DNA of 64,000 nucleotides from Minisyncoccota bacterium (GCA_016211945.1 JACRHV010000004.1:66649-130648); one strand, 5' to 3'; counted from the first letter of the stretch, positions 1 through 51,204 are shown. The notes: generated by a model from the letters alone, not told the origin. A program made the numbers and translations.

Positions 1-1643
1 TCGCTTTTTGAAAACATCTTGGCATATGCCAGCATCATCCCTGTTAAAATCCAATACGTTTGGATAACTTTTGATGAGACAAAGACATCGATGTATATTG
101 CATTAATCATGAGGCCAATCGTGATTGCGGTATGCACAACTGCGAAGAGATACAATAACTCATCTTGTGATACCTTTGTTTTTCTCCACAGGTACCCCAT
201 TGCGATAACCATTGTCCCGTAGAACGTGAGAAATCCAAGTAATCCAGTCTCGCCGAGTGTACGAAGGTAGTCATTATCCGTAGACTCTGCCTCTGTAAAC
301 TGGTCACGTGTATATTTTGTTAAGGTTGAGTATCCTGATCCGAGCAATGGATTTCGCAAAAATCCCCGAATTGCAAATGGCCAGAGCGTATCCAATCGGA
401 TTGCAGCAGACAATCCTAAGCGATGTGCATTCTCTGAGAAAACACGCGGAATGATTACCTCGATTTCCTTGCCCTCAGCAGAAGTTGTTGCAATAACCCT
501 ATCCGGAATATTCTCGTACACATCCGGCGGGAGAACCTGATCCACTGGTGCTACGGGTGTAGGAAGCGTGTCTGTTTTGTCTATGACTTTTTCACGCTTT
601 GCTGCCTCTGCTGCAGCTCTCGCAACGTCGTCGATAGAGATAGCATCTTTGGGTTTTTCCACAAGCGGCGTTTGCGCTTTCTCCTTTGCCTCATTCACTG
701 TATTTTGTAATGCGGTATACGCAGAGTTGTCCTTGAATATCTGCCCAAATCTCAAGAGAAGATCACCAAATATCATGAGGAAAACCGCGGTGACGGCATA
801 ACATACTACCATGCGTGTAACACCCCATATGAGCCCCTTCCGGATAGCAAAAAACACAAGAATCGTCGTGAGTGCGGCAAGATACGCGAGAAACGACGAT
901 CGTGAGGAGGTCATCATCATTCCCCACAAACTTATGAGAAATGTACCCGCTAAACCAAGCTTGAGTTTTTTGTTCTTCACAAAAAACAACAGAGCTAAAA
1001 CAAGTGGTAAGCCTATGACGAGAAACGCCGCGTAGTCATAGTGACCTCCAAACGTCGACTGTACACGCGCGTGTTCGGTGAGATAGAGGCGCAATCCTTT
1101 ACTGAACTCTCTGTTCATTGTTGAGTACACGGGCCAATACAGATACTTCTGTCCCAGTCCATAGATTCCAACTAATGCGGTTGATATCACAAAAATTGCA
1201 AGAAACTTTTTTACTTGGCTTTTAGTTTGAATTGCTGAAAAGGTAATAAAGAACAGTGAAAAATACTCTATTCTTCTCCCGTAGTGCAGAAACATCTTTA
1301 AGATGTGTGGTGCACTCATTGGGACTGTTTTTGTCCAATATATAGCGGAGAGAGATGAGAGAAACCCTACTACTAAATACGCCCCAACCACCCATGTTAA
1401 CGGAGTACTCAGTGATATTTTTTTACGGATAACCTGCACAAACCAAAGCACACTCGCCCCTGCGATAAGAAGATCTTCTATTCGAAGTCTCACGATATAC
1501 CCGGGCAATATGTCTGCCAACGGTAACTTCGGATACAGAGGAATGAATGCAAGTAAAAATCCAGCGATTGCAAGAAGTCCCCACCGATCAAGTAATGAAA
1601 ATACGGCGCTGAGCTTCCATGTATGTGTGTTTTCTTGCTTCAT
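1..1643 (-). CDS. O-antigen ligase/polymerase-like (Wzy_C-type) polytopic membrane protein; C-terminus runs off the window start (partial)
   Basis: Not in the ORF track because there is no stop inside the window. Manual minus-strand translation gives MKQENTHTWKLSAVFSLLDRWGLLAIAGFLLAFIPLYPKL..., several hydrophobic helices, then a charged/Pro-rich loop (KEKAQTPLVEKPKDAISIDDVARAAAEAAKREKV...PTPVAPVDQVLPPDV), a Wzy_C-like motif RLDTLWPFAIRGFLRNPLLGSGYS and more helices. The frame was checked at both ends (ATG at 1643..1641; continuous to position 3). The start overlaps the upstream GT2 by about 56 nt, so a later start (e.g. MSAPHILKMF) is possible. Confidence 0.5.
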   Translation of the reverse strand, partial: MKQENTHTWKLSAVFSLLDRWGLLAIAGFLLAFIPLYPKLPLADILPGYIVRLRIEDLLIAGASVLWFVQVIRKKISLSTPLTWVVGAYLVVGFLSSLSAIYWTKTVPMSAPHILKMFLHYGRRIEYFSLFFITFSAIQTKSQVKKFLAIFVISTALVGIYGLGQKYLYWPVYSTMNREFSKGLRLYLTEHARVQSTFGGHYDYAAFLVIGLPLVLALLFFVKNKKLKLGLAGTFLISLWGMMMTSSRSSFLAYLAALTTILVFFAIRKGLIWGVTRMVVCYAVTAVFLMIFGDLLLRFGQIFKDNSAYTALQNTVNEAKEKAQTPLVEKPKDAISIDDVARAAAEAAKREKVIDKTDTLPTPVAPVDQVLPPDVYENIPDRVIATTSAEGKEIEVIIPRVFSENAHRLGLSAAIRLDTLWPFAIRGFLRNPLLGSGYSTLTKYTRDQFTEAESTDNDYLRTLGETGLLGFLTFYGTMVIAMGYLWRKTKVSQDELLYLFAVVHTAITIGLMINAIYIDVFVSSKVIQTYWILTGMMLAYAKMFSKS

Positions 1644-6843: not shown

Positions 6844-6877
6844 ACCCAAAGTGTAGCATGCTATCATAGTTGGGAGT
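6844..6877. promoter_or_regulatory. short divergent intergenic region presumably holding promoters for the ArnT-like GT-C gene (-) and the UXS-like gene (+)
   Basis: 34 bp between divergent starts; GGGAG lies before the + gene. It is inferred from gene arrangement only. Confidence 0.3.
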
Positions 6878-8407: not shown

Positions 8408-9892
8408 TCATTTGGAGAGAAGAAACAGAGTGATTGATTTGTTCGTGACCATCAGTGTTTCAAGTCTCTTTGCGTACTTGGGTCCAAACTGCGTTACTTC
8501 CCAATGCGGAAGGTTTATTGGGTCTTTTTCCCCTTCTTCCCGTATCACATAGAGTACATCAGCATCTTGATATCTGTACTCGCTTACCGGTATATATCCA
8601 TCTCGCTCGAGTAAAAACCGATATTCATATCCCAAACCTGTCATGCCGTCGGAGCTGTCCTTAAAAATTGTAAATCGCTTGATCCCTCTTACATCGATAT
8701 CTTGCTCTATTGCATGAACCACTCGCGTAAGATTTGATAATGTCCGATATGTTGGTGAGTACAATGGAAATAATTTTGGTATCCATTGCACAAGGATGAG
8801 CAGCACAACTCCACTCATCATCAGTTTTATTTTCGATACATGTCCAATCATGAAAGATACAAAAAGCAATACGACGGTGCAAGGAACAATGAGATAGTAT
8901 GAGAATAAATATCCCTTATAGATCATGAGTAAACCGAGAACAGAACTTGTGAGAATGGTCAACACACCAGCATACGTATATGATGTATGTGATCTTGCTT
9001 TTTTTCTCTGCTTCCAGATTGTTATGAGACCTAAGCCTACTGCGATAAGAATCGCACCCTGTGTCCAGATATTTCCTCCAATGAATTGGAGAACCTTCTC
9101 AGTTTTTTCTGCGAGCGTCCAGTGCGGCAACGTACTGACAATACCCCCTCCCCGTGCCGATAAAAGAATGTAGGAAAGAAATGCTCGGGAATTGATGAAT
9201 CCGTGTCGAAGATCAAAAAGAAGAAGTGGGGAGGCCATGAGAAAAACTCCAAACATGTGCATACATGTTTGCCACACTTTTGCCCATATTTTTTTCTCAC
9301 CGTACACCAGAATAGAAACAACATACCCCGGAAATAACAGCAATGCGCTAAAATGCAGATGAAGAAATAGCCCAAACGAGACACCCGTTACGATGGACCA
9401 AAATGTTTTTGGCCGCTCCAATGACTTTATGAGCGTAGCAACAAAAAGAACAACAACGATTGAAAGCATCGGTTGATGCGTTGCACCACGACTCGCGGAA
9501 ACAAGAAGCGGTTGGAACATAAACAGCAGTGCGAATACAATTCCCGCAGAATACGATCCATACTTTCGCTGTACATGAAATCCCAAAAGTAAAGTAAAAA
9601 CCGCTAACACCACAAAAAGTAAAGAAATAATCTCCGGCACAAAGCCAAAGACGCGATAGCACAATGCAATAGCATAGAAATACAGCGGACCGAGGTAAAA
9701 CCCTCCAACGCTTGCCTGCGCCCCGAGTAATGTCAACTTCCCATGGAGGATTCGCAAAGCAAACAGACTATCTCTGCCAAAATCACTATCGAATTGAATA
9801 CTTGAAAAAAGGCCGTATATTCGAATAAAAAATGCAATGACACAGAGAAAAATGAGAAATACTCTGATATACGATGAATAACTTCTCTTCAT
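8408..9892 (-). CDS. polytopic membrane protein, putative GT-C-like glycosyltransferase (uncharacterised family; paralog of 59679..61166 and 61167..62699)
   Basis: 494 aa with more than 10 helices. The N-terminal loop motif FDSDFGRDSLFALRILHGKLTLLGAQASVGGFYLGPLYFYAIAL is shared with the two other paralogs. Confidence 0.5.
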   Translation of the reverse strand: MKRSYSSYIRVFLIFLCVIAFFIRIYGLFSSIQFDSDFGRDSLFALRILHGKLTLLGAQASVGGFYLGPLYFYAIALCYRVFGFVPEIISLLFVVLAVFTLLLGFHVQRKYGSYSAGIVFALLFMFQPLLVSASRGATHQPMLSIVVVLFVATLIKSLERPKTFWSIVTGVSFGLFLHLHFSALLLFPGYVVSILVYGEKKIWAKVWQTCMHMFGVFLMASPLLLFDLRHGFINSRAFLSYILLSARGGGIVSTLPHWTLAEKTEKVLQFIGGNIWTQGAILIAVGLGLITIWKQRKKARSHTSYTYAGVLTILTSSVLGLLMIYKGYLFSYYLIVPCTVVLLFVSFMIGHVSKIKLMMSGVVLLILVQWIPKLFPLYSPTYRTLSNLTRVVHAIEQDIDVRGIKRFTIFKDSSDGMTGLGYEYRFLLERDGYIPVSEYRYQDADVLYVIREEGEKDPINLPHWEVTQFGPKYAKRLETLMVTNKSITLFLLSK

Positions 9893-11550
9893 TTCGCTCT
9901 CTCACGAACACTGTAGATGTTACAGAGATTGTAGCAACCTGTCTTTTCTAACGAAAGGAGAAAGGCATCTCTAAGTTGATTCATGGATTGATGGAGATAC
10001 GATTCATTGCCTAAACCATACGTCATCGCATACAGTGGCCTTCCCATCTTGAGATAGCTTCTATACAGTGCGAGCAAGTCCGAGTAGTCATGGTCACCCC
10101 ATACTTCCTTTTTCTGAGAACGAAACTCCTGATCTTTAGAGAGGGGTAAAAGGTCATAGGTGTTTTTTGAAAAGTAATCGAAGAAATAGGGTGGAATTGC
10201 AGAGATCACGATGGGCCTCTTCCCATCATTCGTCTGATGATCTTTCATAAATGCTTCTGTTTCTTGTATCGAGATATACCACCATGGCGTCTCCGCGTAT
10301 TTTATATTCACCATGATTTGGCGTTTTATTCTAAAGATGTTTGTGACACCAAAAATCAATACGTATCCAATAAAAAGAATGTACCATATTTTCTCTTTCC
10401 TCATGGCACAGCAGTACTCAAAGAAAATCTGCATCATCCAACCAAATCCTATCAGAAGAAAAGGGATAGAAAAGAGAAGATATCGCATGTCAGGTAGATA
10501 AAACGTCGACATGAAAAGAACCTCTCCTAAAAGGAGGGATAAAAGAACTGACGCGTATTTTTTCCAGGTCGATGAAAAAAGGCGCAATACCAAACCAGCA
10601 AGTCCCCATGAGGCGACAAATCCCGGAAGAATCGGTGTGTAGTCCCATAAAAACTTCATTCCTTCACCGTGTAATCCTCTCCAATGAAAGAGTAAATTAT
10701 TCGGCAGATATCGAAGTGAAAACCATGCGTGTTGCGCCACAACCGCTTCTCCTTGATCACCTCGTGAGGAGTTGTATTGATTCCAAAAACTCAAGAGTAT
10801 CCCCCATGCTGCACCAAACACATTCCTCCCCTGTAAGGAATAATCTAACGCAATGAAACCAAGAAAACAGATTGATAAGCATGCGATGTACTTCTTGAGA
10901 TATGGCGTGTTCTTATAGTGAAAGAAATAGAGGACGGCGAATACGATGGTGAGTGGTGCGTATGCGTACTTCACTCCGTAAAAAAGTATTGATACGATTC
11001 CAGCGTGTAATGCATTTCTTGTAGATTTCACTTCCAAAAAGAGGGACAGCCCATAGAGCATCATTGGAAGCATGAGGTTTTCTGCCATCGCCCATTGTGG
11101 ATACCAAGAAATGTAGTAATTCGTTACATACGCAAAGAAAAGAAATACTTGTATATACTCGTGCGGAACAACTTTTTTTACGATACGAACAAAAAAGAGA
11201 TAAGCCACAATGGCAAAAATGTAGTTTGCTGCATAAAACATTCTTGGGTCATTTTTCAATACAAAAAATGGTAAAAGCGTGAAAGAGTAGAACGGGGCAA
11301 CACTTGGAACAAAAGAGTATCCGTTGCGATACATGGAAAAACCATGACCTGCTAAAAAAGAACGAATCGGGACAATGTAGTGGAATGTGTCTGGGAATGG
11401 TTCAAAATTTGGAATAAGCGTACGCACAGAAAATGGGTTTCTTGCGAGCAAAAGGACAAGTAGAAACCCCGCTGCCCAGGGAGAGATTCGCAACCAATAC
11501 GCACGCGGAGGAAGTTTTGAGATGAAATTTTTTAACACAACACCGATCAT
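9889..11550 (-). CDS. polytopic membrane protein, putative GT-C-like glycosyltransferase
   Basis: 553 aa with many helices. Early loop motif FEPFPDTFHYIVPIRSF (a D-x-x-H-Y type). ATGA overlap with the downstream gene. Confidence 0.45.
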   Translation of the reverse strand: MIGVVLKNFISKLPPRAYWLRISPWAAGFLLVLLLARNPFSVRTLIPNFEPFPDTFHYIVPIRSFLAGHGFSMYRNGYSFVPSVAPFYSFTLLPFFVLKNDPRMFYAANYIFAIVAYLFFVRIVKKVVPHEYIQVFLFFAYVTNYYISWYPQWAMAENLMLPMMLYGLSLFLEVKSTRNALHAGIVSILFYGVKYAYAPLTIVFAVLYFFHYKNTPYLKKYIACLSICFLGFIALDYSLQGRNVFGAAWGILLSFWNQYNSSRGDQGEAVVAQHAWFSLRYLPNNLLFHWRGLHGEGMKFLWDYTPILPGFVASWGLAGLVLRLFSSTWKKYASVLLSLLLGEVLFMSTFYLPDMRYLLFSIPFLLIGFGWMMQIFFEYCCAMRKEKIWYILFIGYVLIFGVTNIFRIKRQIMVNIKYAETPWWYISIQETEAFMKDHQTNDGKRPIVISAIPPYFFDYFSKNTYDLLPLSKDQEFRSQKKEVWGDHDYSDLLALYRSYLKMGRPLYAMTYGLGNESYLHQSMNQLRDAFLLSLEKTGCYNLCNIYSVRERAK

Positions 11551-11563
11551 ATCTGTCGTTATA

Positions 11564-13132
11564 TCAAGTCTTTGGTAAAAACGCTACAAGCTCTTTTTTA
11601 AATCGTTCGCGACTGAAATACTGACTTCTCTCTAATGCCTTCCTACTTTTTTCCTTCAATATTTTGGGATCTTGAATCAGTAGTATCGTGTATCGCATGA
11701 GTTCTTCTCTAGTATTCCACACAAAACCGCAGTCTTGTGTCACAATTTCTGGCTGACCACCGCAGTTAATGACGACCGGAACACAGCCAGAAGCCATCGC
11801 CTCCACCGTTGTAATTCCAAAATGTTCTAATCGAACCGGATATCGTTCGTTGTCTTCGTCTAATCCAGTTGCATGCCAATAAATCTTGGCTTCTGAGAGT
11901 AGCGTTCGGAGTTCGGTAAATGAAACGTTTGTATGAAGAAAGATCGGATATCCCAATGATTCTTCCTTTATTGACTCCACATACTGCCGATGCGCATGAC
12001 CTTCGGCGATACCTCCAACAAAATGGAGCTCCCAATCTTTCAAGCCGGTCTCGACAAGACGTTTAAATACCCGAGCCATGTCGAGTTGTTTCTTTGAGTG
12101 CCCCCCCAGAAAAAACCTCCCCACATGCATAATGATATTTTTTTTCTGCTTCGCGGGTGCGAACGCTTTCACATCAACAGGAGGATACAGTATCCCGCTT
12201 CTCATCCCCCAGTATCGATGAATCCAGTCCTGTGAAAACTTTGATATTGCTATTACACGATCATATGAGTCTATGTCCGAAAAACGCGTGGGAGAAGGAC
12301 CGCCGTGCAGACGCATCTCCCAAGTTGGAAATAATGATTTAAATAAGTTATAGAGCATATATCGCGGATGATTAATACTCATACTGGTGAGTGCAATTGC
12401 ATCCGAGTACTCGGACTCCGGAAGTACAATGGTTAAACCAGTATCTTTTACCGGCACAGTAAAGGTAAATTCGTATTGAATTGCGTTTGAAACTCTATTG
12501 ACGATACGCGAGACAGGCTCAACCTTCATTTTCCCCAAGCGGAAAAAAATCTGATCAATGCATGAGAATGCGAGATAGTCCACACGTAGTTCGATACAAA
12601 GATGGTGCGTATTTTGATTAAAGTAAATTGTTGATTCTTTTCCAAGCCATTTATAGAGCCTACCACCGCGATATTCATCGTATCGAAATCCTTCAAACTG
12701 CGACGGATAAATAAAAAAACGACGAAGTGATGGAATAATATGCGCACGTTTCATGTACTCATACACAGAAACCTTTATCCTTGACGGAAAGAAGATCGAA
12801 AGAACACCGTATTTGCTTCTATTGGGAATGTAATCCAAATATGAATTCGAAACGAAAACATCATACCCTTCCGTATATTGGCTCAATTGATAATCGAGGA
12901 AATTGGGAAGATACCGCATAGTGATGTCGTGAAGATCCACATGCATTTTGCTTTCAGCTTCATGCATATCGAACTTTTTATGTGTCAAAATCTCTGTGCG
13001 ATACCCTAAATCACGAAGTGTTTCCGCATATGCAAACGCCACTTGCTCTCCACCGCCTAGTGTGTGAAGCCAGCGGTCATATACTGCCGCCCTTTTTTGT
13101 TTACGATCTTTCTTTTTTATTGTGTCTGGCAT
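11564..13132 (-). CDS. family 4 glycosyltransferase with a large N-terminal extension domain
   Basis: C-terminal EHFGITTVEAMASGCVPVVINCGGQPEIV (GT-B EX7E region). Start chosen at MPDTIKKKDRK, which is preceded by GAGGATAAAAGG. Confidence 0.7.
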   Translation of the reverse strand: MPDTIKKKDRKQKRAAVYDRWLHTLGGGEQVAFAYAETLRDLGYRTEILTHKKFDMHEAESKMHVDLHDITMRYLPNFLDYQLSQYTEGYDVFVSNSYLDYIPNRSKYGVLSIFFPSRIKVSVYEYMKRAHIIPSLRRFFIYPSQFEGFRYDEYRGGRLYKWLGKESTIYFNQNTHHLCIELRVDYLAFSCIDQIFFRLGKMKVEPVSRIVNRVSNAIQYEFTFTVPVKDTGLTIVLPESEYSDAIALTSMSINHPRYMLYNLFKSLFPTWEMRLHGGPSPTRFSDIDSYDRVIAISKFSQDWIHRYWGMRSGILYPPVDVKAFAPAKQKKNIIMHVGRFFLGGHSKKQLDMARVFKRLVETGLKDWELHFVGGIAEGHAHRQYVESIKEESLGYPIFLHTNVSFTELRTLLSEAKIYWHATGLDEDNERYPVRLEHFGITTVEAMASGCVPVVINCGGQPEIVTQDCGFVWNTREELMRYTILLIQDPKILKEKSRKALERSQYFSRERFKKELVAFLPKT

Positions 13133-13146
13133 CCTTTTATCCTCTG

Positions 13147-14583
13147 CTAATACAGCGATGTATACAATGATTGTATGGATCTCTTCTCCTGTCTCCCCAA
13201 CATCCATCGTTTGTGTAACAGCTCGAACATGTGGACAAATATCCACCGCAACACTTCAAGTCGAAACTTCTGTCTCTCTTCCCACAACTCGAACTTCATC
13301 CAACTTCCCTTTACTCCCCATTTCATCATCCTGATGTACGAGATCAACCAGGCCATACATTGCATAACAAGTTGTTTTCCAACAACGATCCATGGAAACT
13401 GTTTGATGACAAGTGCTAAATGGTTTCTCTCCGCGTGATACTGAACGAAGGAAGACCACTCTCCACTGGAGGCTGAGTGGATATGGTGAACAACTGCCTT
13501 TGGCTCATATGCTATATCGTATCCCATACGCCACATACGAAGACTGAGATCGATATCCTCGTAGTACATGAAGAATGACTCATCAAACCCGCCGAGATTC
13601 ATAAAGACATCTCTTTTTAATAACACGTTCACTCCGCAAAATGCGATGATCTTCCGATCTACGGCGTAGTACGGATTATCGATTTCGTATCGTTGCATGT
13701 GGTGTTTTGCCGTAACCCCCAAGTCCCGAACATATCCGTTCTTGAACACAGCGTTGCCTGCGTTTTGCACCGCGTAGAGCGCGTGCTTCTTTAGCGCAGT
13801 TTTAGGAATTGTAATCGAGTATTGCTTGACCTGTGCTGGCTCAAGCACATGTTTTTCGAGCTCAGTTTCACCCAGCTTAACCACGAATGGGGTTTTCAGT
13901 CCGGATCTCCCCTTTTGAGAACGCATTGTCATTGTTAGAGATATTTTTTCACCATTGGGATCGAAGGGGATGAGTAAACGTCCATCCCCATTTGTCCACC
14001 GAGCGATGATCGTTCCTTTTTCTTTTTCGTAAAATCCGGAACGGTACTGCACAAGGTGTTGAAGTGATTTGTCCTCTATCTCAACATGTTCAACAAGCAC
14101 ACCGACTTGTTGAAAATCAGCAGTTTGCGTAAACTCAGATTTGGTGAACACATCCGAGACAATGCGAAGTTCGATAAAGGGATACCACAGAAGTGACTTT
14201 CCATTCACAGCGCCAATACTTCGTGACGATTCCGCGCGATGCACTAACGCTGTCAACCAATCGGGGTCCACAGTCGTGTCATTATTCAGCAGTACGACGT
14301 ATGTTCCACGAGCATGCTTCACACCCAGATTGTTCCCACCAGCAAATCCTACATTATGCTCGCTCTCTATGATATGAACCTCTGGATATTCTCTTTTGAG
14401 ATATGCAACAGAGTCATCCCAAGAATTGTTGTCGACAACAACGATCTCAAGCTGTGATTCTGGAAAATGGAGAAGGTAGAGAGAATCTAAACACGATTTT
14501 AAAAAACGTTTTCCGTTATAATTGACAATAATGATGGATACAATCGGATGTTTTTGCATATTTGAATACAACTGTTTCTTCAC
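13147..14583 (-). CDS. family 2 glycosyltransferase with a C-terminal extension
   Basis: IVSIIIVNYNGKRFLKSCLDSL...VVVDNNSWDDS...NVGFAGGNNLGVKHARGTYVVLLNNDTTVDPDWL. Confidence 0.8.
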   Translation of the reverse strand: MKKQLYSNMQKHPIVSIIIVNYNGKRFLKSCLDSLYLLHFPESQLEIVVVDNNSWDDSVAYLKREYPEVHIIESEHNVGFAGGNNLGVKHARGTYVVLLNNDTTVDPDWLTALVHRAESSRSIGAVNGKSLLWYPFIELRIVSDVFTKSEFTQTADFQQVGVLVEHVEIEDKSLQHLVQYRSGFYEKEKGTIIARWTNGDGRLLIPFDPNGEKISLTMTMRSQKGRSGLKTPFVVKLGETELEKHVLEPAQVKQYSITIPKTALKKHALYAVQNAGNAVFKNGYVRDLGVTAKHHMQRYEIDNPYYAVDRKIIAFCGVNVLLKRDVFMNLGGFDESFFMYYEDIDLSLRMWRMGYDIAYEPKAVVHHIHSASSGEWSSFVQYHAERNHLALVIKQFPWIVVGKQLVMQCMAWLISYIRMMKWGVKGSWMKFELWEERQKFRLEVLRWIFVHMFELLHKRWMLGRQEKRSIQSLYTSLY

Positions 14584-14613
14584 CTACAGTATACTATAAA
14601 AAAAGATCATAAT

Positions 14614-16623
14614 ATGAAATTTGCTTTTTTTTATTTCTTCTTCATTTTTTTTACTCTAGCTTTTTTCTCTTCTGGTGTACTGGATTCAGAAGACAGTTGG
14701 CTATATGTTTCTGTCGCAAAAAACATCTACTACAATCATGAGATAACAGCCGCACCAAATGAATATGCGCAAAGAAAGAACGTGAATTTTAACGCTACAC
14801 TCGGAGCAGATGGAAAATGGAGGACATCACAAGCGCTAGGATATTCGATTGCAATGGTACCAGCAGTAGCGCTGTCCGATGTAGTTCATAGATATTATGG
14901 AGTTCCCTCAACAAATCATTTTCCTCTAGAACACGACTGGACTCTCCATTTTTTTGCCAGTTTTACAAACTCATTTTTAGCGGCTCTCCTTGCTGTGTAT
15001 ATCTATTTTTACGGCATACTCCTAGGTCTACCCAAAAAATCTGCCCTCATCCTTAGTCTCTTTGTGACCTTTGCTACTATCGTGATGCCGATGTCAAAAC
15101 TAGGTTTTGCGCAGATGTTGTTCACATCGGCATTGGTCGCAACCTGGTATCATATGACCCGTTGGCTAAAATTATCTGAAAGAAAAGACATTGTTTTTTT
15201 CTGTGTAACTTTCGGAACTCTTATTCTCTCATATAACTCTTCTTATCTTCTTACAATCCCGCCACTCGCGCTTTATGTGTATCTTGTTCTTTTAAAGAAA
15301 TATGACTGGCTTGCACAACATCACAAAAGGAATCTTCTTTTTCTTGTCATTGGCGGCATTGTTTGTTCTTTTCTTTTTTTCTCCCCATCAATTCTTTCAG
15401 TTTTAGAAGCGTTTCGCCCCAAAGCATTGTTTGAAGGAGTCTGGGGATTTTTGCTAAGCCCTGGCAAAAGTGTTTTTTTGTACAATCCACCACTTATTAT
15501 TTTGCTCATTTTTTGGTACAAAATCCCAAAAAAATATATGCCAGAAACAATATCGTGGATCTTTCTTGCTTTCCTCTATCTCTTTGTTTATGGATCAGCA
15601 CGCCTCAGAGAGGATGTGTATATTTGGCACGGCGGTATGGGGTGGGGTGCTCGATACATTTTTCCTCTCGTTCCTTTTTTTGCGATGCTCGCGTATCTCA
15701 CTACCCAACGTCTTTCATCACTCCAAAGAAAATTGGTGTGGTATCCGTTTATCGCATTGAGCATCTTTATACAGATCATAGGTTCAACAATTCCATATCT
15801 CGTTCAATACCGCAGTCTTCCATACAACATTTTCATCAATAAAATGGAAATTCTTCACTACGATTATGCAAGTTTTCTCCCCAGATACTCTCCGCTCATC
15901 CTGATGCTGAGAGAGTTTAAAACAAAATTGCGAGAGCTCCCTCTTACGATTGATCATGGTGATTACAAAGCACGACTTGTTGACGGGTTCAACCCACCAC
16001 TCAAGATAGGAAACGGAGCATTTCGTGGAATACAACGTCAAGGATATCTGGAATATCAACAGCAGAAATCTCGACCGCTAAAATCCATAGCCCTTAGTCT
16101 TTACAATGCACCAGACAATCCAAGCATAGGAACATACTCTGCGCTGCTACAACTCAAGTTGAACGAACACCAAATTGAACAAGACATTATTATTCCCTCT
16201 CAAAAAGATGTAACTTCTCGTCTCCAAATCCCAGACGGAATAGAAAAACAAGCAGATAATCTTATTGAATTTTCTGTGCAATATATAGGAACGTCATCGG
16301 CACACCAAGTACTGTACGTAAAATCGCTTGCGTTTAATGACGCCCCCATCAATATTCGTTCTCTCGATTATCCGGATCTTTCCGCATTAGGAGAAAAAAC
16401 GAGTAATCGACCATATCGAGTATTTGGGAAAGAACGGAAAGACCTCTGGGAGTTATGGAATCTTCGTGCTCGTATTTCTGAGGAAACATTTGATCTTTGG
16501 TGGATTAAAAATTTGTATTATTGGGACCGACCTCAAAATCTTGTTTGGGCCTTATTTTGTGTAAATGTTGCGGGAATATTTGTCACAGGCTGGTATGTCT
16601 TTCGTCGAGTGATGTATACTTAA
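14614..16623 (+). CDS. large polytopic membrane protein with a C-terminal soluble domain, putative GT-C-like
   Basis: 669 aa. The N-terminal half has 12 or more hydrophobic helices and an early loop DSEDSWLYVSVAKNIYYNHE. The C-terminal ~250 aa are hydrophilic. Confidence 0.45.
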   Translation: MKFAFFYFFFIFFTLAFFSSGVLDSEDSWLYVSVAKNIYYNHEITAAPNEYAQRKNVNFNATLGADGKWRTSQALGYSIAMVPAVALSDVVHRYYGVPSTNHFPLEHDWTLHFFASFTNSFLAALLAVYIYFYGILLGLPKKSALILSLFVTFATIVMPMSKLGFAQMLFTSALVATWYHMTRWLKLSERKDIVFFCVTFGTLILSYNSSYLLTIPPLALYVYLVLLKKYDWLAQHHKRNLLFLVIGGIVCSFLFFSPSILSVLEAFRPKALFEGVWGFLLSPGKSVFLYNPPLIILLIFWYKIPKKYMPETISWIFLAFLYLFVYGSARLREDVYIWHGGMGWGARYIFPLVPFFAMLAYLTTQRLSSLQRKLVWYPFIALSIFIQIIGSTIPYLVQYRSLPYNIFINKMEILHYDYASFLPRYSPLILMLREFKTKLRELPLTIDHGDYKARLVDGFNPPLKIGNGAFRGIQRQGYLEYQQQKSRPLKSIALSLYNAPDNPSIGTYSALLQLKLNEHQIEQDIIIPSQKDVTSRLQIPDGIEKQADNLIEFSVQYIGTSSAHQVLYVKSLAFNDAPINIRSLDYPDLSALGEKTSNRPYRVFGKERKDLWELWNLRARISEETFDLWWIKNLYYWDRPQNLVWALFCVNVAGIFVTGWYVFRRVMYT

Positions 16624-16629
16624 CACATC

Positions 16630-17412
16630 ATGATTTCAATCATACTGCGGCCGTTCCAGTCATACAAATATCTCTTGTTGCAACTTACACAGCGCGAGAT
16701 AAAATCTCGATATAAGCAGTCTTTTGTGGGTTATGCTTGGGTAATCCTGAACCCGTTAGCGCAACTTCTTGTGTATTCGTTTGTTTTTTCTGTTGTTTTC
16801 CGCTTCCCAACACATGATATTCCATACATCATTTTCTTGTATGCTGGTTTACTTCCTTGGGGACTTTTTCAAGGATCGATTTCAGCAGCAACACAATCGC
16901 TTGTTGAGAATGCACCTCTTATTCGCAAGGTGAATTTTCCACGTGAGATTATTCCATATTCCGTTGTTCTTGCAAAAATAGTCGATTTTCTTGTTTCTGC
17001 GCTTATTTTTATTGGATTTATGATCGCTTTTCGCGTTCCATTTTCATCAACCACGATCTATCTTGTCCCATTATTTTTCAGTCAACTCCTTCTTACTATT
17101 GGTATTTCGCTCATACTATCGGCAGGTAATCTGTTTTATAGAGATATTCAATACCTCGCAAATCTCCTACTTATGCTCTGGATGTACATGACTCCTGTTG
17201 TCTATCCTCTGTCACTTGTACCAACACAGTATGTTTGGTTCTATAAACTCAACCCCATGGTTGGTATTTTAGAGGGTTATCGATCTGCACTATTTAACTA
17301 CCCATTTGAATGGACTATTATATCTTGGTCTTTGGCTATTTCATGCCTCGTTTTTCTCATTGGATTTTTTGTATTTAAAAAAAGTGACAAGATTTTTGCG
17401 GATATTGCATAA
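16630..17412 (+). CDS. ABC-2 type polysaccharide/teichoic-acid exporter permease (Wzm/TagG/KpsM-like)
   Basis: 260 aa with 6 TM helices. N-terminus LLLQLTQREIKSRYKQSFVGYAWVILNPLAQLLVYSFVF is characteristic of ABC-2 permeases. Confidence 0.85.
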   Translation: MISIILRPFQSYKYLLLQLTQREIKSRYKQSFVGYAWVILNPLAQLLVYSFVFSVVFRFPTHDIPYIIFLYAGLLPWGLFQGSISAATQSLVENAPLIRKVNFPREIIPYSVVLAKIVDFLVSALIFIGFMIAFRVPFSSTTIYLVPLFFSQLLLTIGISLILSAGNLFYRDIQYLANLLLMLWMYMTPVVYPLSLVPTQYVWFYKLNPMVGILEGYRSALFNYPFEWTIISWSLAISCLVFLIGFFVFKKSDKIFADIA

Positions 17413-17413
17413 C

Positions 17414-18154
17414 ATGAATACGCCAATACACATTCCTGCTATTAGATTTGATCGGGTTTCAAAATCGTATTATCTTCAGGAGGATCGTACGTTTAAAGAC
17501 GTCATTCCAAGCTTGCTTCTTGGAAAGCCATGGGCAAAAAAACATATCGTGTTCCATGATTTGAATTTCTCTATCGCGCAGGGGGAAACTGTTGGAATTG
17601 TAGGAAAAAATGGAGCCGGAAAATCTACCATGTTGAAACTCATTGCAGGAGTAACGTACCCCAATACTGGTTCTGTTGTGGTTCAAGGTCGTGTTGCACC
17701 TCTTATTGAATTGGGTGCTGGTTTTCATCACGAACTATCCGGATATGAAAATATATTTCTAAACGCAGCGATTCTTGGTATGCACAAAAAAGAAATTGAG
17801 TTAAAAATAGATGAGATTATCAAGTTTAGTGAACTTGAAGAATTCATTCATGTTCCAGTAAAACGATATTCGTCTGGTATGCATATGAGGCTTGGATTTT
17901 CCGTTGCCATCCATGTTGATGTGCCGATCTTACTCATTGATGAAGTTCTTGCTGTTGGTGACCGAGATTTCCAGCAAAAATGTTTGAATAAACTTCAAGA
18001 GTTAAAGCAGAATAAACAAAAAACAATTGTTTTTGTAAGTCATAATGAAGAAGCGGTAAGAAGCTTTTGCGATCGAGCGATTCTTCTAGAACACGGGAAA
18101 ATTATTGAAGACGGAAATCCAAAGAGGGTGTTTGAACGATATAATAAGGCGTAA
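17414..18154 (+). CDS. ABC transporter ATP-binding protein (Wzt/TagH/KpsT-like), short form without a C-terminal glycan-binding domain
   Basis: Walker A GIVGKNGAGKST, signature YSSGMHMRLGFS, Walker B ILLIDEVLAVGD. Start set at MNTPIHIPAIRF immediately after the Wzm stop; the ORF-track extension to 17306 is probably spurious. Confidence 0.85.
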   Translation: MNTPIHIPAIRFDRVSKSYYLQEDRTFKDVIPSLLLGKPWAKKHIVFHDLNFSIAQGETVGIVGKNGAGKSTMLKLIAGVTYPNTGSVVVQGRVAPLIELGAGFHHELSGYENIFLNAAILGMHKKEIELKIDEIIKFSELEEFIHVPVKRYSSGMHMRLGFSVAIHVDVPILLIDEVLAVGDRDFQQKCLNKLQELKQNKQKTIVFVSHNEEAVRSFCDRAILLEHGKIIEDGNPKRVFERYNKA

Positions 18155-18155
18155 T

Positions 18156-18785
18156 TTATTTTTTGCCGCGAATAAAAAGCCAGTGATACCATTCTATCTT
18201 GTGCCAATCCATATTCCCTTGAACATCCTCTGCCTTCCAATTGAGCAGTGGTTTCCCCAAAATTTCTGGAGTTGGATTACAGTTTCTACAATCTTTAAAC
18301 CTCGCTTCCTTAAACCAGCGTTTTGCATCCTGATATGTCCATAACCAATGATGTACATCATACTCATTTTCATGTCCACCGACTGCCCATCGTTGGAGCC
18401 AATAGTTGCTTACTCGTTTTAGAGAAGAAGATGTACATATTTTTTCAAAGTCAGGAGTGACAATGAAAAATGTACCACCTGGCTTTAATATTCGATATAC
18501 CTCCTTTACAACTTCTACTGTTGTTCCATATCGTTTCTGCATTGATTTACTGCTATATTCTGGATGACAAAAGTGTTCCATGATGTGTACAGCACGTACT
18601 TCCTTCCTTACAAAATTATCTGGAATTGGTGTTTTCCGTACATCGGAAAGAATATCTAAATCGGGTAAATTTGGAAGAATATCAAGATGAACATATCCAG
18701 ATTCAGGATTGTTACCAGATCCGATTTCGAGTTTCTCAATACCATTGGGAAAAGATTGTAATACCTGATTTTTTTTCGTTAACAT
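18156..18785 (-). CDS. class I SAM-dependent methyltransferase
   Basis: SAM-binding motif LEIGSGNNPESGYVHLD, motif II ILKPGGTFFIVTPD. It is convergent with wzt, 1 nt apart. Confidence 0.7.
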   Translation of the reverse strand: MLTKKNQVLQSFPNGIEKLEIGSGNNPESGYVHLDILPNLPDLDILSDVRKTPIPDNFVRKEVRAVHIMEHFCHPEYSSKSMQKRYGTTVEVVKEVYRILKPGGTFFIVTPDFEKICTSSSLKRVSNYWLQRWAVGGHENEYDVHHWLWTYQDAKRWFKEARFKDCRNCNPTPEILGKPLLNWKAEDVQGNMDWHKIEWYHWLFIRGKK

Positions 18786-19856: not shown

Positions 19857-21701
19857 ATGTGTGGAATTGCAGGAAAAATCATTATTGGAGATACACCAAA
19901 AAAAGAAGACATTAGTCAAATGCTTGAGACTATTGCACATCGTGGTCCTGATGATATAGGAATATCAATAGTAGGGCCAGCAGGATTAGGGCACCGCCGA
20001 CTTGCAATTATCGATCTCTCACCCAAGGGACACCAACCAATGTCATATGCAAACGGAAGATACAACATTACATTTAATGGTGAAATATACAATTATCAAT
20101 CACTTCGAAATCTTCTTTCCCAAAAAGGATATACATTTACTTCAACGTCTGATACTGAAGTAATTCTCGCAATGTATCAGGAATTTGGTATGAAATGTCT
20201 TCACTATTTTAATGGCATGTTCGCATTTGCCCTCTATGATAAAAAAGAGAATACACTTTTTGCAGCACGCGATAGACTCGGAGAAAAGCCTTTCAAATAT
20301 TTTTTCGATGGAAAAACATTTATTTTTGCTTCTGAATTAAAGGCAATTCTTACACAAACAGAAGTTTCATGTAAACACGACATACAAGCAATTAAAGAAT
20401 ATCTTTATTGGGGATTTGTTCCTTCACCTAAGACGGGATATAAAGATATTAATAAGCTTCCCGCGGCACATTATTTATTGTTCAAAAATGGAAAAGTGAT
20501 TACAAAAAGATATTGGGACTTCTCAAACACTATAAATACATTCCGAACAGAAAAAGAGACAAAAGAAACACTACGTGAACTTTTATATGAAAGCGTTCGA
20601 CTTCGAATGATCTCAGATGTTCCAATTGGTTCTTTTCTCTCTGGAGGAATCGATTCGTGTGTTGTGACGGGAATCATGAGTGAATTATCAAAAAAACAAG
20701 TTCGCACTTACACAATTGGAATCGAAGGATGGAGTAGTGATGAAGCTTCCTTAGCTAAAATTAGTGCAAAATATCACAATACAAAACATAAACTTTTATA
20801 TGTAAAACCGAACATTTCAAAACTTATACCACTTCTTGCTAAAGCATACGAAGAACCATTCGGTGATTCGTCAGCTATACCAAGTTATTATGTAAGTCAA
20901 GCAACGCGAAAACACGTAACTGTCGCATTAAATGGCGATGGAGGAGATGAAAACTTTTGTGGATATAGCAACTATACAACACTTATTACACAAGATAAAT
21001 TACAATACACAAAACCAATCGCTACACTTGCTTACGCAATACTTTCCCCATTTAAGGCAAGTTTATGGAAATATGGAGCATATCAACGGGCATTACGCAT
21101 TTCTGATCTATTAAAAGATGATGTACTCACAGGATATGCAAGGCACGCACGATCATATCTTAACCTCATATCATTCTCTGATCTTTTTCATGAATCTGCA
21201 CCAACTGAAATCAACCTTTTTACACAATACCTTCCAAAAGAGAAAAAAGACCTTATATCCTCTGTGACATGGGCAGATTTGCATAATGTACTACCAGATG
21301 GTTTGATGCCCAAAATGGATATTGCCTCTATGCAGCACTCATTAGAAACTCGCGCACCCTTGCTCGATCATCAATTAGTTGAATTTGCTGCAACTATACC
21401 AACAGAGCTAAAATACAAAAATGGTCAAACAAAGTGGATATTTAAAGAAACATTCAAAAAACTTATTCCATTAGAAATATTAAAAAGCCCTAAGCGAGGA
21501 TTCGTCATGCCTATGGGTGATTGGTTAAGGCATGAACTTCGACCCCTCCTTGAGATCTCATTACAAGATCCAAAACATCAAATCTATTCCATTCTTCGCT
21601 ATGATACCGTACAAAAAATGATGAAATATCATATGGAAATTCAGATTGATTACACTCCATACCTTTGGAGGATACTTATGCTCTCACTTTGGATGAACTA
21701 A
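19857..21701 (+). CDS. asparagine synthase (glutamine-hydrolysing) family amidotransferase, AsnB/WbpS-like
   Basis: 614 aa. N-terminal MCGIAGKI (Ntn Cys2) and the PP-loop SGGIDSCVV. An AAGGA sits ahead of the start. Confidence 0.85.
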   Translation: MCGIAGKIIIGDTPKKEDISQMLETIAHRGPDDIGISIVGPAGLGHRRLAIIDLSPKGHQPMSYANGRYNITFNGEIYNYQSLRNLLSQKGYTFTSTSDTEVILAMYQEFGMKCLHYFNGMFAFALYDKKENTLFAARDRLGEKPFKYFFDGKTFIFASELKAILTQTEVSCKHDIQAIKEYLYWGFVPSPKTGYKDINKLPAAHYLLFKNGKVITKRYWDFSNTINTFRTEKETKETLRELLYESVRLRMISDVPIGSFLSGGIDSCVVTGIMSELSKKQVRTYTIGIEGWSSDEASLAKISAKYHNTKHKLLYVKPNISKLIPLLAKAYEEPFGDSSAIPSYYVSQATRKHVTVALNGDGGDENFCGYSNYTTLITQDKLQYTKPIATLAYAILSPFKASLWKYGAYQRALRISDLLKDDVLTGYARHARSYLNLISFSDLFHESAPTEINLFTQYLPKEKKDLISSVTWADLHNVLPDGLMPKMDIASMQHSLETRAPLLDHQLVEFAATIPTELKYKNGQTKWIFKETFKKLIPLEILKSPKRGFVMPMGDWLRHELRPLLEISLQDPKHQIYSILRYDTVQKMMKYHMEIQIDYTPYLWRILMLSLWMN

Positions 21702-26604: not shown

Positions 26605-28002
26605 ATGCACAATTCAATACTTAAGAATATATCTTGGCAAACGTTATACCAATTTTTAGCAAGTGGTTTAGGTTTATTATTCAACATTATTTTAGCTAGA
26701 ACAATTTCTCAGTTTGAGTTTGGTACATTCAATTACATCATATCCATCCTTTCAATTTCCACACTTTTTCTTGAACTGGGGATACCCACTTATTTTTGGA
26801 GAAAATGGAGCACCGATATTTCGAAAATAAATCAGGATATAAGTTCATATTTAGTCGGTAGAGTCGGTATTGCTATACCAATTAGTTTTTTTCTTTTCTT
26901 TTATGTTTTTTTCATTGATCGATTTGTAAGCTTAGAATTTTTACTAGCCTACATTTATTTTTTACTTGACATTTTTGTACAACCAACACGACTTTTCTTT
27001 TCATCTCAAAATAAATATCACAAAACATTTATTATCGATGGTTTAGAAAGGTGCATATCATTAGGTTTAGGCATCTTATTGCTCATTTTGCATTATCCTT
27101 TACGAAAAGTATTTTTAGGATTCATATTTGGACGATTGACCTCAATTCTTTTGTGCTATGTTTTAAATAAAAATGTTCGATCATTATCTTTTTCCTTTAA
27201 GGGAATTCGTAATATCATTCATCTTTCCATACCACTCTTTATGATTGGGATATTTTCTACTTTGTATTTCCGCATCGATACACTTATGATTCGGTACCTC
27301 CTCGGTATGCAGGACGTTGCCATATATATGGCCGCATACAGACTCCTAGATGGAGGAGCTCTTATACCTGGAATTCTTACTACTGCAACAATGCCATTAA
27401 TTGTAAAACTCTATCATGACAAGGAAAAAAAGAAATTAACTCTTCTATTTCATAACATGATGATAGTATTGGCAATTCCAGCGCTATATATTGCATCAGT
27501 TTGTTTACTTTTTGCTCCAAATATTATTCCATTAATCTTTGGTCCAGAATTTAATAGTTCTATTCAAATCTTACGAGTACTTGGCTTAAGTTCAGTACTA
27601 TTATTCCTCACATACCCACTTACCCATTTTATGGTCGCAAATAAACAGGAGACTTACTATGTGAAGGTGCTGGTATTACTTACAGTAACCAACATTGTGT
27701 TTAACATTCTACTAATTCCGAAGATTGGCATACTTGGATCGGCATTAGCAACACTTTTGTGTGAACTTTTATCATTAATTTTTTTGTACCATAAAGTTCA
27801 GATTAAAATTCCAATCAAGATATTTTTAAAACTATTTTTCTCCATTTTTATTGCAACACTCATAACACTTATGCTTCCATTTCCATGGTATATCAATATT
27901 TTTTGCTTGGGTATTTTGTATTGTTGTATACTATTAATAGTAAAAATAGTAACTATACAAGAAGTTTTTTTGTACTTACGCGGAATATTAGTCAATGATT
28001 AA
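26605..28002 (+). CDS. polysaccharide biosynthesis protein, Wzx-type flippase (MOP superfamily)
   Basis: 465 aa with about 12-14 TM helices. N-terminus ILKNISWQTLYQFLASGLGLLFNIILARTISQFEFGTFNYIISILS is characteristic of Wzx/RfbX. Confidence 0.8.
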   Translation: MHNSILKNISWQTLYQFLASGLGLLFNIILARTISQFEFGTFNYIISILSISTLFLELGIPTYFWRKWSTDISKINQDISSYLVGRVGIAIPISFFLFFYVFFIDRFVSLEFLLAYIYFLLDIFVQPTRLFFSSQNKYHKTFIIDGLERCISLGLGILLLILHYPLRKVFLGFIFGRLTSILLCYVLNKNVRSLSFSFKGIRNIIHLSIPLFMIGIFSTLYFRIDTLMIRYLLGMQDVAIYMAAYRLLDGGALIPGILTTATMPLIVKLYHDKEKKKLTLLFHNMMIVLAIPALYIASVCLLFAPNIIPLIFGPEFNSSIQILRVLGLSSVLLFLTYPLTHFMVANKQETYYVKVLVLLTVTNIVFNILLIPKIGILGSALATLLCELLSLIFLYHKVQIKIPIKIFLKLFFSIFIATLITLMLPFPWYINIFCLGILYCCILLIVKIVTIQEVFLYLRGILVND

Positions 28003-35008: not shown

Positions 35009-35788
35009 TTATTTTATTATTAAGTACGCACGAACAATAAACTTGGCGTGAAGTTTATGCAATTCTAATAAGATAGGATTTGTTGTGTATCTCTTCAACA
35101 CCATAACCTCTTCTTCAAATTGATTCACAAACTGAGATCTGCCCTTTGATTGTTGATGAATACGAAAAACGGATAAAGCTTCAGGCATGACATATAAAGG
35201 ATATTTTTGTATCAATCTCAACCAAAAATCATAATCCATGCAATAGTGCAGCGACACATCGAATATTCCAATCTCTCTCATCGCACCACGTCGCCAAAAC
35301 GTACTTGGTTGTGCAATGCTATTTGCAATACCTAGAGTAAAGAACGTTGGTACTTTCCGTAACATCTTCTTATACCAACGAACATATTCATGTATTCTTT
35401 TCCCTCGTCCATTTACGATAAAATAATCTCCCGTCACCCACATAGCTTTAGGATTATCTGCAAAAAAAGCCGCAACTTTTTGCAATGTGCCAGGGAGGTA
35501 ATAATCATCTGAGTTCAAATACCCGATAATGTCGCCGTGCGATCGTTCAATTCCTTTATTAATGGCATCGGCTTGTCCCTTGTCCCTCGTACTTTCCCAC
35601 AATACTCTTTTTCCGTATGATCTTAAAATGTTTACAGAACCATCGGTTGATCCGCCGTCCATAACAATATATTCAACTCGTGGGTAATCTTGTTGTACGA
35701 CACTCTCAATTGTTTGTGGGAGAAACGATGCTTGGTTGTAACTTGGTGTGATGATACTAATGGTTGGAGATTTTACGTTTGTTGGCAT
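35009..35788 (-). CDS. family 2 glycosyltransferase
   Basis: ISIITPSYNQASFLPQTIESVVQQDYPRVEYIVMDGGSTDGS...YLNSDDYYLPG. Confidence 0.8.
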   Translation of the reverse strand: MPTNVKSPTISIITPSYNQASFLPQTIESVVQQDYPRVEYIVMDGGSTDGSVNILRSYGKRVLWESTRDKGQADAINKGIERSHGDIIGYLNSDDYYLPGTLQKVAAFFADNPKAMWVTGDYFIVNGRGKRIHEYVRWYKKMLRKVPTFFTLGIANSIAQPSTFWRRGAMREIGIFDVSLHYCMDYDFWLRLIQKYPLYVMPEALSVFRIHQQSKGRSQFVNQFEEEVMVLKRYTTNPILLELHKLHAKFIVRAYLIIK

Positions 35789-51194: not shown

Positions 51195-51204
51195 CTCTTT
51201 TTTC

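Follow-up and report, generated by a model that had tools for sequence, protein, structure and literature searches.

The 64-kb window analysed here (the whole stretch of 64,000 nucleotides from a Minisyncoccota bacterium, GCA_016211945.1 JACRHV010000004.1:66649-130648) carries, at 16630-18785, the two genes of an ATP-binding cassette (ABC) glycan exporter, wzm and wzt, convergent with a small gene whose product has a methyltransferase fold. The three belong to a cassette of seven genes that spans about 9 kb (9889-18785) and is kept in about a dozen Pacebacteria. From left to right, with positions counted from the first letter of the window, its members are the following:

9889-11550, minus strand: M553, a polytopic membrane protein with about seven or more transmembrane segments and a C-terminal soluble domain, syntenic in relatives
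11564-13246, minus strand: GT4_560, a family-4 glycosyltransferase with an inserted region (PF00534, 65 bits)
13147-14583, minus strand: GT2_478, a cytoplasmic family-2 glycosyltransferase with a split catalytic domain (PF00535, 88.8 bits)
14614-16623, plus strand: M669, a GT-C-fold membrane glycosyltransferase with a beta-sandwich (residues ~454-574) and a C-terminal transmembrane helix
16630-17412, plus strand: wzm, an ABC-2 (type V) permease of 260 aa (PF01061 ABC2_membrane, 68.7 bits, cutoff 26.9)
17414-18154, plus strand: wzt, the nucleotide-binding subunit, 246 aa (PF00005 ABC_tran, 71 bits)
18156-18785, minus strand: a protein of 209 aa with the class I S-adenosylmethionine (SAM) methyltransferase fold, a putative glycan O-methyltransferase

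We consider it reasonably, though by no means strongly, probable that the three genes form the export end of a cassette with which a clade of Candidatus Pacebacteria makes a cell-surface glycan.

Gene calls and Pfam scans covered about 56 genes of the window, and our negative results on lipopolysaccharide (LPS) and S-layer genes are bounded by it. The methyltransferase and M669 are 100% identical to HZA34_01275 and HZA34_01260 at NCBI, both from Candidatus Pacebacteria, a group that the NCBI lineage places in Bacillati; Minisyncoccota. Among the homologues of three proteins (the methyltransferase, M669 and a Wzy_C protein at the left edge of the window), almost all taxon-bearing names are Pacebacteria, Microgenomates, Saccharimonadia or Patescibacteria. 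These bacteria of the Candidate Phyla Radiation (CPR, or Patescibacteria) make up a large share of bacterial diversity, have very small genomes and live bound to other microbes. Cryogenic transmission electron microscopy of CPR cells has revealed an S-layer and no outer membrane (10.1101/2020.05.14.094862; see also PMC8871954). None of the window genes belongs to the lpx, kds, waa or lpt sets, the 64 kb hold no recognisable S-layer structural gene, and tRNA genes, sought as integration marks of an "island", are likewise missing from the window. Relatives of the locus were gathered from the contigs of homologues and from a scan of GTDB representative genomes, which together gave 11 distinct loci, and synteny was established by local tblastn of the window proteins against them. 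One contig, L005, is 100% identical to the window over all shared genes and extends to the left of the window edge.

The transporter genes and the convergent methyltransferase, as named in a preliminary description of this DNA, are real. The best solved relatives of Wzm are TarG (6jbh, 3e-26) and the A. aeolicus Wzm (1e-22); five hydrophobic segments appear on a crude scan, where about six transmembrane helices are expected of the permease class, and its orthologues, 58-93% identical, sit in the same cassette of relatives. The ATG of wzt, at 17414, lies 1 nt past the wzm stop, and wzt is probably translationally coupled to wzm. Residues 28-245 of Wzt align with residues 17-233/235 of the A. 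aeolicus Wzt (4.7e-70, 239 bits), whose full chain has 404 aa; other matches are TarH (180 bits), TagH and M. tuberculosis RfbE (7e-48). In NCBIfam the protein finds TagH models (220 and 197 bits) and a galactan exporter model (193 bits), every equivalog cutoff being missed. Judged by these comparisons, Wzm/Wzt is a typical type-V glycan exporter in which Wzt consists of the nucleotide-binding domain (NBD) only. From the adjacent GT2 and GT4 genes we predict that it transports a polymer linked to polyprenyl pyrophosphate.

Exporters of this kind are divided into cap-dependent and cap-independent systems (PMC9445017). In the cap-dependent ones, with methyl, phosphomethyl or Kdo caps, a coiled-coil terminator is combined with a carbohydrate-binding domain (CBD) of Wzt that reads the cap (PMC9445017; PMC11127046). 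The Wzt studied here has no C-terminal CBD, its alignment to the 404-aa A. aeolicus chain ending at residue 235; no stand-alone Wzt_C domain occurs among the scanned proteins of the window or of the relatives, and the Wzt orthologues (242-255 aa) are likewise devoid of a CBD in all relatives examined. Since Wzt lacks this domain, export should not be gated by the recognition of a terminal cap.

The methyltransferase gene stops 1 nt from the wzt stop, with no terminator between these closely spaced ends. Its AlphaFold model (pLDDT 90) is a single globular domain whose longest helix does not exceed 11 residues. Foldseek against the PDB returned 497 matches at E<=1e-3, the top ones all SAM methyltransferases (TM-scores of 0.45-0.56), and small phage methyltransferases resemble the model more closely (TM-scores of 0.63-0.67, root-mean-square deviation 3.7). 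An NCBIfam scan gave no match. In an alignment of 32 sequences, motif I (L-E20-I-G22-S-G24) and the acidic D35 show little or no variation, and the same alignment holds a Methyltransf_11-like segment, DVR..PIPDNFV...VHIMEHF, together with LKPGG. The helix that normally follows motif I is missing in the model. The family also shows unusual invariant His/Cys-rich motifs, namely RAVHIMEHFCHP, GGH..YDVHHWLW and EWYHWLF; the invariant residues H67, E70, H71, C73, H74, H138, H145, H146 and H201 are atypical for Methyltransf_11/23 enzymes, and these motifs may mark a metal site or a special pocket for the acceptor. The family comprises 72 proteins (54-83% identity, 128-265 aa), comes almost only from Pacebacteria and, in a library of 1.84 billion proteins clustered at 50% identity, amounts to a single cluster. 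A second, canonical methyltransferase lies near the right edge of the window, between GT2 and PMT_2 genes (62703-63257, minus strand, 184 aa; Methyltransf_23 69 bits, Methyltransf_11 48 bits).

The preliminary description had compared the small methyltransferase with the methyl-capping chain terminators of ABC-dependent O-antigens and of Gram-positive S-layer glycans. Kinship with WbdD was rejected: phmmer and the 32-sequence profile, run against all PDB chains with WbdD among them, gave no match with E under 0.14, and the 50 best Foldseek matches to the model do not include WbdD. A coiled-coil ruler is absent from the model too, and the N-terminal part of the cassette's GT4, read from its sequence, is a GT-B half with an insertion. 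With a Wzt that has no CBD, the role of a cap-gated terminator of the WbdD type, as in E. coli O8/O9a, is not supported. What remains of the capping idea is the association of the gene with the pathway, which is real, while the hallmarks of cap-gated export are absent.

The full set of seven genes is found in L001/L007, L002/L003/L016, L004 and L010, and parts of it on the shorter loci L008, L009, L012, L014 and L015. Across these loci the GT4 measures about 520 aa, the GT2 about 475 aa and the M669 protein about 670 aa. In at least eight genomes (L001/7, L002/3/16, L004, L008, L009, L010, L012, L014 and L015), the methyltransferase gene stands between M553 and GT4, both of which are read from the other strand. 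In the window M669-wzm-wzt converge on it instead, an arrangement shared with the nearest two relatives, L022 and L023, whose methyltransferases are 83% and 73% identical. The adjacency of wzt and the methyltransferase is a subclade feature, and the gene otherwise always lies inside the cassette, L006 excepted. Orthologues of GT4_560, 48-56% identical, are found beside the methyltransferase in at least eight relatives, and the position of GT2_478 is conserved in all relatives. The true start of GT4_560 is probably M38, at ~13135, its orthologues being 517-524 aa long. The start codons of GT2_478 and M669 diverge across only 30 bp (14584-14613), so that promoters must lie in coding sequence, or else transcription is organised otherwise. 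Several contigs of metagenome-assembled genomes with non-CPR titles also carry cassette genes: L006-L009 and L011 ("uncultured Pseudomonadales") and L013 ("Methylococcaceae"). L007 has the full cassette, L008, L009 and L011 have part of it, and L006 and L013 have the methyltransferase alone; mislabelling or mis-binning is the likely source of these titles.

Domain fusions tie the methyltransferase to the two soluble glycosyltransferases. The nearest outgroups of its family (E 1e-26 to 1e-16) are domains within large multidomain proteins. P0245 joins a methyltransferase-like domain to a GT4; P0249 and P0253, as well as the larger P0247 and P0250, are built as Methyltransf_25-GT2-methyltransferase-like-GT4. 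The GT4 domains behind the methyltransferase-like domain in P0245 and P0249 are 37-38% identical to GT4_560 (E ~5e-32), and GT2_478 shares 33% identity, over its N-terminal part, with the GT2 domain of P0249. The three soluble enzymes occur elsewhere as one polypeptide, which gives good grounds for thinking that the substrate of the methyltransferase is the glycan product of GT2 and GT4. Its most likely function, to judge from these relationships, is to methylate the cassette glycan in cooperation with that pair. Some of the outgroup giants, with GT4, GT2 and methyltransferase domains, are encoded on apparent phage genomes: one of 1636 aa (L020, 5962-10872) between a portal/capsid/scaffold module and tail genes, another of 1105 aa (L019, 8001-11318) on a 163-kb contig that also encodes SNF2, DnaB, primase and sigma-70. 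These proteins may serve to glycosylate virions.

M669 ends 6 nt upstream of wzm, in the same operon. It has no Pfam match and no sequence-level match to any curated family; distant sequence links lead from it to PMT/PMT_2 proteins. Its AlphaFold model (pLDDT 88.9, pTM 0.89) retrieves EmbC (7bve, 3e-6), ArnT (5f15, 1e-4), STT3/PglB and Pmt4 in Foldseek, and the beta-sandwich matches BcsB, CBM35 and CBM51. Directly after the first transmembrane helix stands D24-S-E26-D27, placed as in GT-C enzymes, with D27 invariant and S25 nearly so in 28 sequences. Enzymes that combine GT-C with a carbohydrate-binding module (CBM) and act on exported polymers are known: EmbA/B/C and AftD of mycobacteria, and ORF12 (GT136) of C. 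youngae O1, where the backbone is ABC-exported (PMC11127046). The modelled fold and the presence of candidate synthases in the locus suggest that the donors of M669 would be polyprenyl-phosphate sugars. The synthases in question are encoded by one pair of overlapping genes:

35009-36128, minus strand: a GT2 (259 aa; PF00535, 107.8 bits) overlapping a DUF2304 protein (123 aa; PF10066, 60.8 bits)

The same pairing is seen in the polyprenyl-phosphate-sugar synthases GacI/GacJ and PpgS/Rv3632, and GacJ is a DUF2304 protein that stimulates GacI (10.1101/180810). The second large membrane protein of the cassette, M553, was considered as a diverged paralogue of M669 but shows no detectable relation to it (hhalign 6%; Pfam empty at E<=10).

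To the left of the cassette lies a second module, that of the Wzy_C protein, with three conserved neighbours:

3-1649, minus strand: Wzy_C protein, polytopic (PF04932, 41.2 bits, cutoff 31.7), a candidate ligase or oligosaccharyltransferase
5368-7095, minus strand: M575, distantly related to the PMT_2 paralogue at 47959-49584
6878-7846, plus strand: Epi322, an epimerase (Pfam)
8408-9892, minus strand: PMT494, a PMT_2 protein (Pfam)

The preliminary description had placed a Wzy_C gene at 1..1643; the domain is there, with the coordinates and strand listed above. On L005 the full-length protein has 564 aa, of which the window misses about 15 C-terminal residues, and its loop measures about 120 residues. 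At least 1907 homologues show 45-68% identity, nearly all of them 520-610 aa long, and all taxon-bearing names among 120 listed homologues are CPR groups. Wzy polymerases are hypervariable. The Wzy_C family is therefore unlike a typical Wzy polymerase, being far too conserved. A close relationship to WaaL was also rejected: a 30-sequence profile compared by hhalign with E. coli K-12 WaaL gave a probability of 5.8%, and neither phmmer nor profile searches of the PDB matched a solved chain. Where the ligase motif H[NSQ]x9GxxG has its His, Wzy_C has an invariant Asp (D456-N457-x9-G467-xx-G470), a correspondence drawn by eye. The invariant R248 lines up with the "TQTR" segment of WaaL in an alignment of no significance. 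No tetratricopeptide repeat (TPR) region was found on Wzy_C or in the window, and a faint TPR protein lies near the L018 orthologue.

In the window and in the more distant CPR loci L017 and L018, the module reads GT4-GT4-Hexapep-GT2-Wzy_C-PMT_2...NTP_transferase-Bac_transf, and synteny across L001-L018 shows that M575, Epi322 and PMT494 link it to the ABC cassette. In L001, L002, L014 and L016 M553 and the methyltransferase have a Wzy_C homologue (39-42% identical) as their immediate neighbour. Two fusion proteins, of 1245 aa in L001 (4508-8245, minus strand) and 1046 aa in L002 (5192-8332, minus strand), have a Wzy_C-like N-half and an M553-like C-half, and both directly adjoin a stand-alone M553 gene. 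Because of these fusions, Wzy_C is probably tied functionally to an M553-type partner. In Pacebacteria Wzy_C is interleaved with the ABC cassette, yet it also occurs in loci without the cassette.

We propose the following scheme, in which we infer the glycan substrate, the order of the steps, the site of methylation and the acceptor. GT2 (13147-14583) and GT4 (11564-13246) would polymerise a glycan on polyprenyl-(pyro)phosphate at the inner face of the membrane. The small methyltransferase (18156-18785) would methylate this glycan together with the GT4/GT2 pair, and Wzm/Wzt (16630-18154) would then export the lipid-linked chain in a cap-independent way. Outside, M669, and probably M553 and other GT-C paralogues, would bind the chain and add sugars from polyprenyl-phosphate donors. 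Finally, Wzy_C (3-1649) would probably transfer the product to its acceptor. Since the host, an ultra-small CPR bacterium, is monoderm and has no LPS, this acceptor should be a protein (S-layer or pilin), the cell wall or a membrane lipid, and not a lipid A-core.

Several observations weigh against this scheme. L017 and L018 have the Wzy_C module and no wzm/wzt within 10 kb, and Wzy_C may serve a different glycan. The methyltransferase scores below threshold with Methyltransf_23 (21.9 bits, cutoff 27), and its homologue in L006 (10001-10624, 65% identical) stands alone, the flanking stretches of about 10 kb each being free of cassette genes. M553 has no Pfam match, even at E<=10, no NCBIfam match and no assignable fold. 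The outside location of the M669 beta-sandwich is suggested by helix counting and analogy only. No initiating phosphoglycosyltransferase is encoded inside the cassette; the nearest initiator is a 206-aa Bac_transf (WbaP-type) on L005, about 9.5 kb to the left of the window.

The cassette is embedded in a much larger region, as glycan biosynthesis fills all 64 kb and at least 10 kb past the left edge. The window holds about 25 GT2/GT4 genes, four DegT aminotransferases, six epimerase/reductase genes, two hexapeptide acyltransferases and two methyltransferases. About 11 of its membrane proteins have GT-C/PMT_2-type evidence, which is unusually many for a CPR genome of small size. Four of them are tandem PMT_2 (GT-C) paralogues at 46463-52767 on the minus strand (pairwise E 1e-31 to 1e-66), and others lie at 8408-9892, 5368-7095, 31196-32965, 40462-42135 and 59679-62699. 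Two further genes on the plus strand bear on what follows:

19857-21701, plus strand: an AsnB-type glutamine amidotransferase, one epimerase gene away from the methyltransferase
26605-28002, plus strand: a Wzx/MOP flippase (PF01943 Polysacc_synt, 87 bits; PF13440, 66 bits), in a low-GC (31-35%) variable block

A possible role of the AsnB homologue is the amidation of a uronic acid or similar sugar. GC content is 31-36% at about 18-35 kb, against 40-45%. The variable sugar block contains epimerase, AsnB, DegT, Hexapep and GFO genes in the window, NeuB, Epimerase_2, ATP-grasp and FdtA genes in L022 (1-10000), and NeuB and an acetyltransferase in L023 (1-8250). That the sugar genes differ wholly between such close relatives suggests serotype-like variation. 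On the right (55592-57649, minus strand), among glycosyltransferase genes, a protein of 685 aa with an N-terminal signal-like hydrophobic segment has no Pfam match at E<=10; by its sequence it may be secreted or surface-exposed.

The separate flippase named in the preliminary description is confirmed at 26605..28002. It lies 25 kb from Wzy_C, near a GT-C-like protein. M589 (31196-32965) was considered as the Wzy partner of Wzx and turned out instead to be weakly PMT_2-like. The two export routes that the preliminary description saw in the region need not mean two polymers, as Wzx may supply lipid-linked monosaccharides for decoration outside the cell. A single pathway of this kind, in which Wzx flips polyprenyl-phosphate monosaccharides made by GT2/DUF2304 synthases and GT-C enzymes decorate the ABC-exported backbone with them, is the best of the alternatives, and we hold it only tentatively. 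The GT2/DUF2304 pair at 35009-36128 and the many GT-C/PMT_2-type membrane proteins are what it calls for, and the streptococcal group A carbohydrate pathway offers a precedent for the flippase as well, since GacK is Wzx-type and its proposed task is to flip GlcNAc-P-undecaprenol for use by GacL, a GT-C enzyme (10.1101/180810). The ABC-dependent O antigen of C. youngae is served by a MATE flippase and a GT-C enzyme with a CBM (PMC11127046), and L001/L007 has a Polysacc_synt flippase downstream of wzm-wzt-M696, in the same orientation. However, the Wzx of the window adjoins neither the GT2/DUF2304 pair nor the cassette, tblastn at 1e-10 detects no orthology between it and the L001 flippase, and the substrate of a MOP flippase is not readable from sequence.

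The model of the preliminary description, an S-layer glycan of the slg type that is methyl-capped, exported by a cap-dependent Wzm/Wzt and transferred to the S-layer by Wzy_C in the manner of WsaB/WsfB, appears doubtful as a whole. Part of the parallel stands. CPR cells have an S-layer and no outer membrane; a WbaP-type initiator with Wzm/Wzt, Wzy_C, an AsnB homologue and low-GC sugar genes are all present, as is characteristic of slg loci (PMC2943079); relatives of the methyltransferase are fused to glycosyltransferase domains, as in WsaE; and related loci carry more methyltransferases beside wzm/wzt, among them RfbT-like Methyltransf_21 proteins. The capping part fails on the export side, as Wzt has no cap-reading CBD, either built in or, among the scanned proteins of the window and the relatives, as a separate Wzt_C, and the methyltransferase has neither the ruler nor any similarity to WbdD. 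Nor was a TPR region found on Wzy_C, and no S-layer gene was identified in the window.

A bolder version of our own proposal is of similarly low probability. It holds that the cassette is CPR-specific machinery for a surface glycan, for which no exact counterpart exists. A Wzm/Wzt that works without a cap would be firmly coupled to a GT-C/CBM enzyme, and an Asp-variant Wzy_C, sometimes fused to M553, would link the methylated glycan to proteins of the S-layer or pilus, or to host-derived lipid, with variable NeuB/FdtA/AsnB blocks generating serotype-like diversity. If this were true, such diversity would govern the recognition of these episymbionts by hosts and phages.

That two unrelated pathways are interspersed here, one making a heteropolymer with Bac_transf, Wzx and Wzy_C as polymerase and the other an ABC-exported homopolymer from the cassette, with Wzy_C independent of Wzm/Wzt, we regard as rather unlikely. 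Bac_transf, Wzx and Wzy_C are all there, the Wzy_C modules of L017 and L018 do without wzm/wzt, and NCBIfam reports a weak match of Wzy_C to the repeat-unit polymerase model TIGR04370 (20.6 bits, cutoff 40). But a family with 45-68% identity over at least 1907 proteins does not behave like hypervariable Wzy; in neither L017 nor L018 does a Wzx lie closer than 10 kb to Wzy_C, and that of the window is 25 kb off, in the low-GC block near a GT-C-like protein. Moreover, Wzy_C is fused to an M553 paralogue in L001 and L002 and abuts the ABC cassette in L001, L002, L014 and L016.

A wall teichoic acid exporter of the TagGH/TarGH type is highly improbable. TagH models are the best NCBIfam matches of Wzt (220 and 197 bits, below their cutoffs) and TarG is the best solved relative of Wzm, but the partners in the cassette are GT2/GT4 sugar transferases, the 64 kb yielded no TagF/TagB glycerophosphotransferase, TagD/TarI cytidylyltransferase or LCP ligase, and Wzt scores 239 bits with the A. 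aeolicus O-antigen Wzt against 180 bits with TarH. An ordinary Gram-negative LPS locus, with WaaL attaching the chain to lipid A-core, is very unlikely and in fact barely conceivable, because the host is a CPR bacterium without an outer membrane and the window has no lpx/kds/waa/lpt genes: the family names (O-antigen ligase, Wzm/Wzt, Wzx) are typical of LPS loci and some related contigs are titled Pseudomonadales or Methylococcaceae, but the window proteins are identical to Pacebacteria proteins, the three homologue families bear almost only CPR names, and no WaaL was retrieved from the PDB with the Wzy_C profile (hhalign with the E. coli protein, 5.8%). A lipid A/core pathway with a WaaL-like Wzy_C, which the preliminary description had named as the mark of ordinary O-antigen ligation, was thus not found in the window of this CPR host.

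More than 64 kb, with about 25 glycosyltransferases and about 11 GT-C-type proteins, are given to surface glycans despite the tiny genomes of CPR bacteria. A cassette so defined, portable and conserved is a starting point for rebuilding a CPR envelope glycan in a heterologous host, and it allows the ligation target of a Wzy_C protein to be tested in a bacterium without LPS.

Compared with known systems, the locus resembles in its transporter the CBD-less Wzm/Wzt pathways, those of K. pneumoniae O2a, the prototype, and of mycobacterial galactan (Wzm/Wzt-RfbE), which have the same NBD-only Wzt beside GT2/GT4 genes and no cap reader. It differs from them in its host, a CPR monoderm and neither a diderm nor a mycobacterium, in the GT-C + CBM gene within the transporter operon, and in the methyltransferase and M553 as fixed members of the cassette. 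With the cap-dependent systems, the E. coli O9a pathway with WbdD and the A. aeolicus WzmWzt with its 3-O-methyl cap, it shares a genetically tied methyltransferase and a Wzt whose NBD is closest to that of A. aeolicus; their defining features are absent, as the locus has neither a CBD nor a coiled-coil terminator and lacks a kinase domain and any similarity to WbdD.

The slg loci of G. stearothermophilus NRS 2004/3a and P. alvei share with the present one a monoderm host, an S-layer-bearing group, a WbaP-type initiator with Wzm/Wzt, and a Wzy_C protein. The P. alvei locus has an asparagine-synthase homologue, wsfA, and the window has its AsnB homologue (PMC2943079). WsaE consists of a methyltransferase and two rhamnosyltransferase domains (PMC2943079); we liken it by its described architecture, in which the methyltransferase is fused to glycosyltransferases, to genes that are split here and fused in distant relatives. 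The G. stearothermophilus model predicts that Wzt binds the methylated chain, whereas the Wzt of the window is NBD-only. The roughly 11 GT-C-type genes have no slg counterpart, and no TPR region or partner was seen with Wzy_C in the window. The analogy with slg loci is plausible but unproven.

The streptococcal Gac pathway (GacD/E with GacI/J/K/L for the side chain) and the three-component systems of enterobacteria, such as ORF15/ORF14/ORF12 of C. youngae, show the same combination of an ABC-exported backbone, a flippase and a GT-C enzyme. The window has a Gac-like GT2+DUF2304 synthase pair, and its M669 carries a CBM like ORF12 and EmbC; on the other hand, no Gac-type rhamnan genes or LCP ligase were seen, and GT-C genes are far more numerous here. 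With WaaL, PglL and PilO, Wzy_C has in common an above-threshold Wzy_C domain and a polytopic build; it differs in its length of 564 aa, in its fusions with an M553-like domain in some CPR genomes and in showing no significant similarity to WaaL. In layout the locus resembles O-antigen loci, as a conserved core for assembly and export stands next to a variable sugar block. Overall, we see in the cassette a novel form of ABC-transporter-dependent glycan assembly in a poorly understood lineage.

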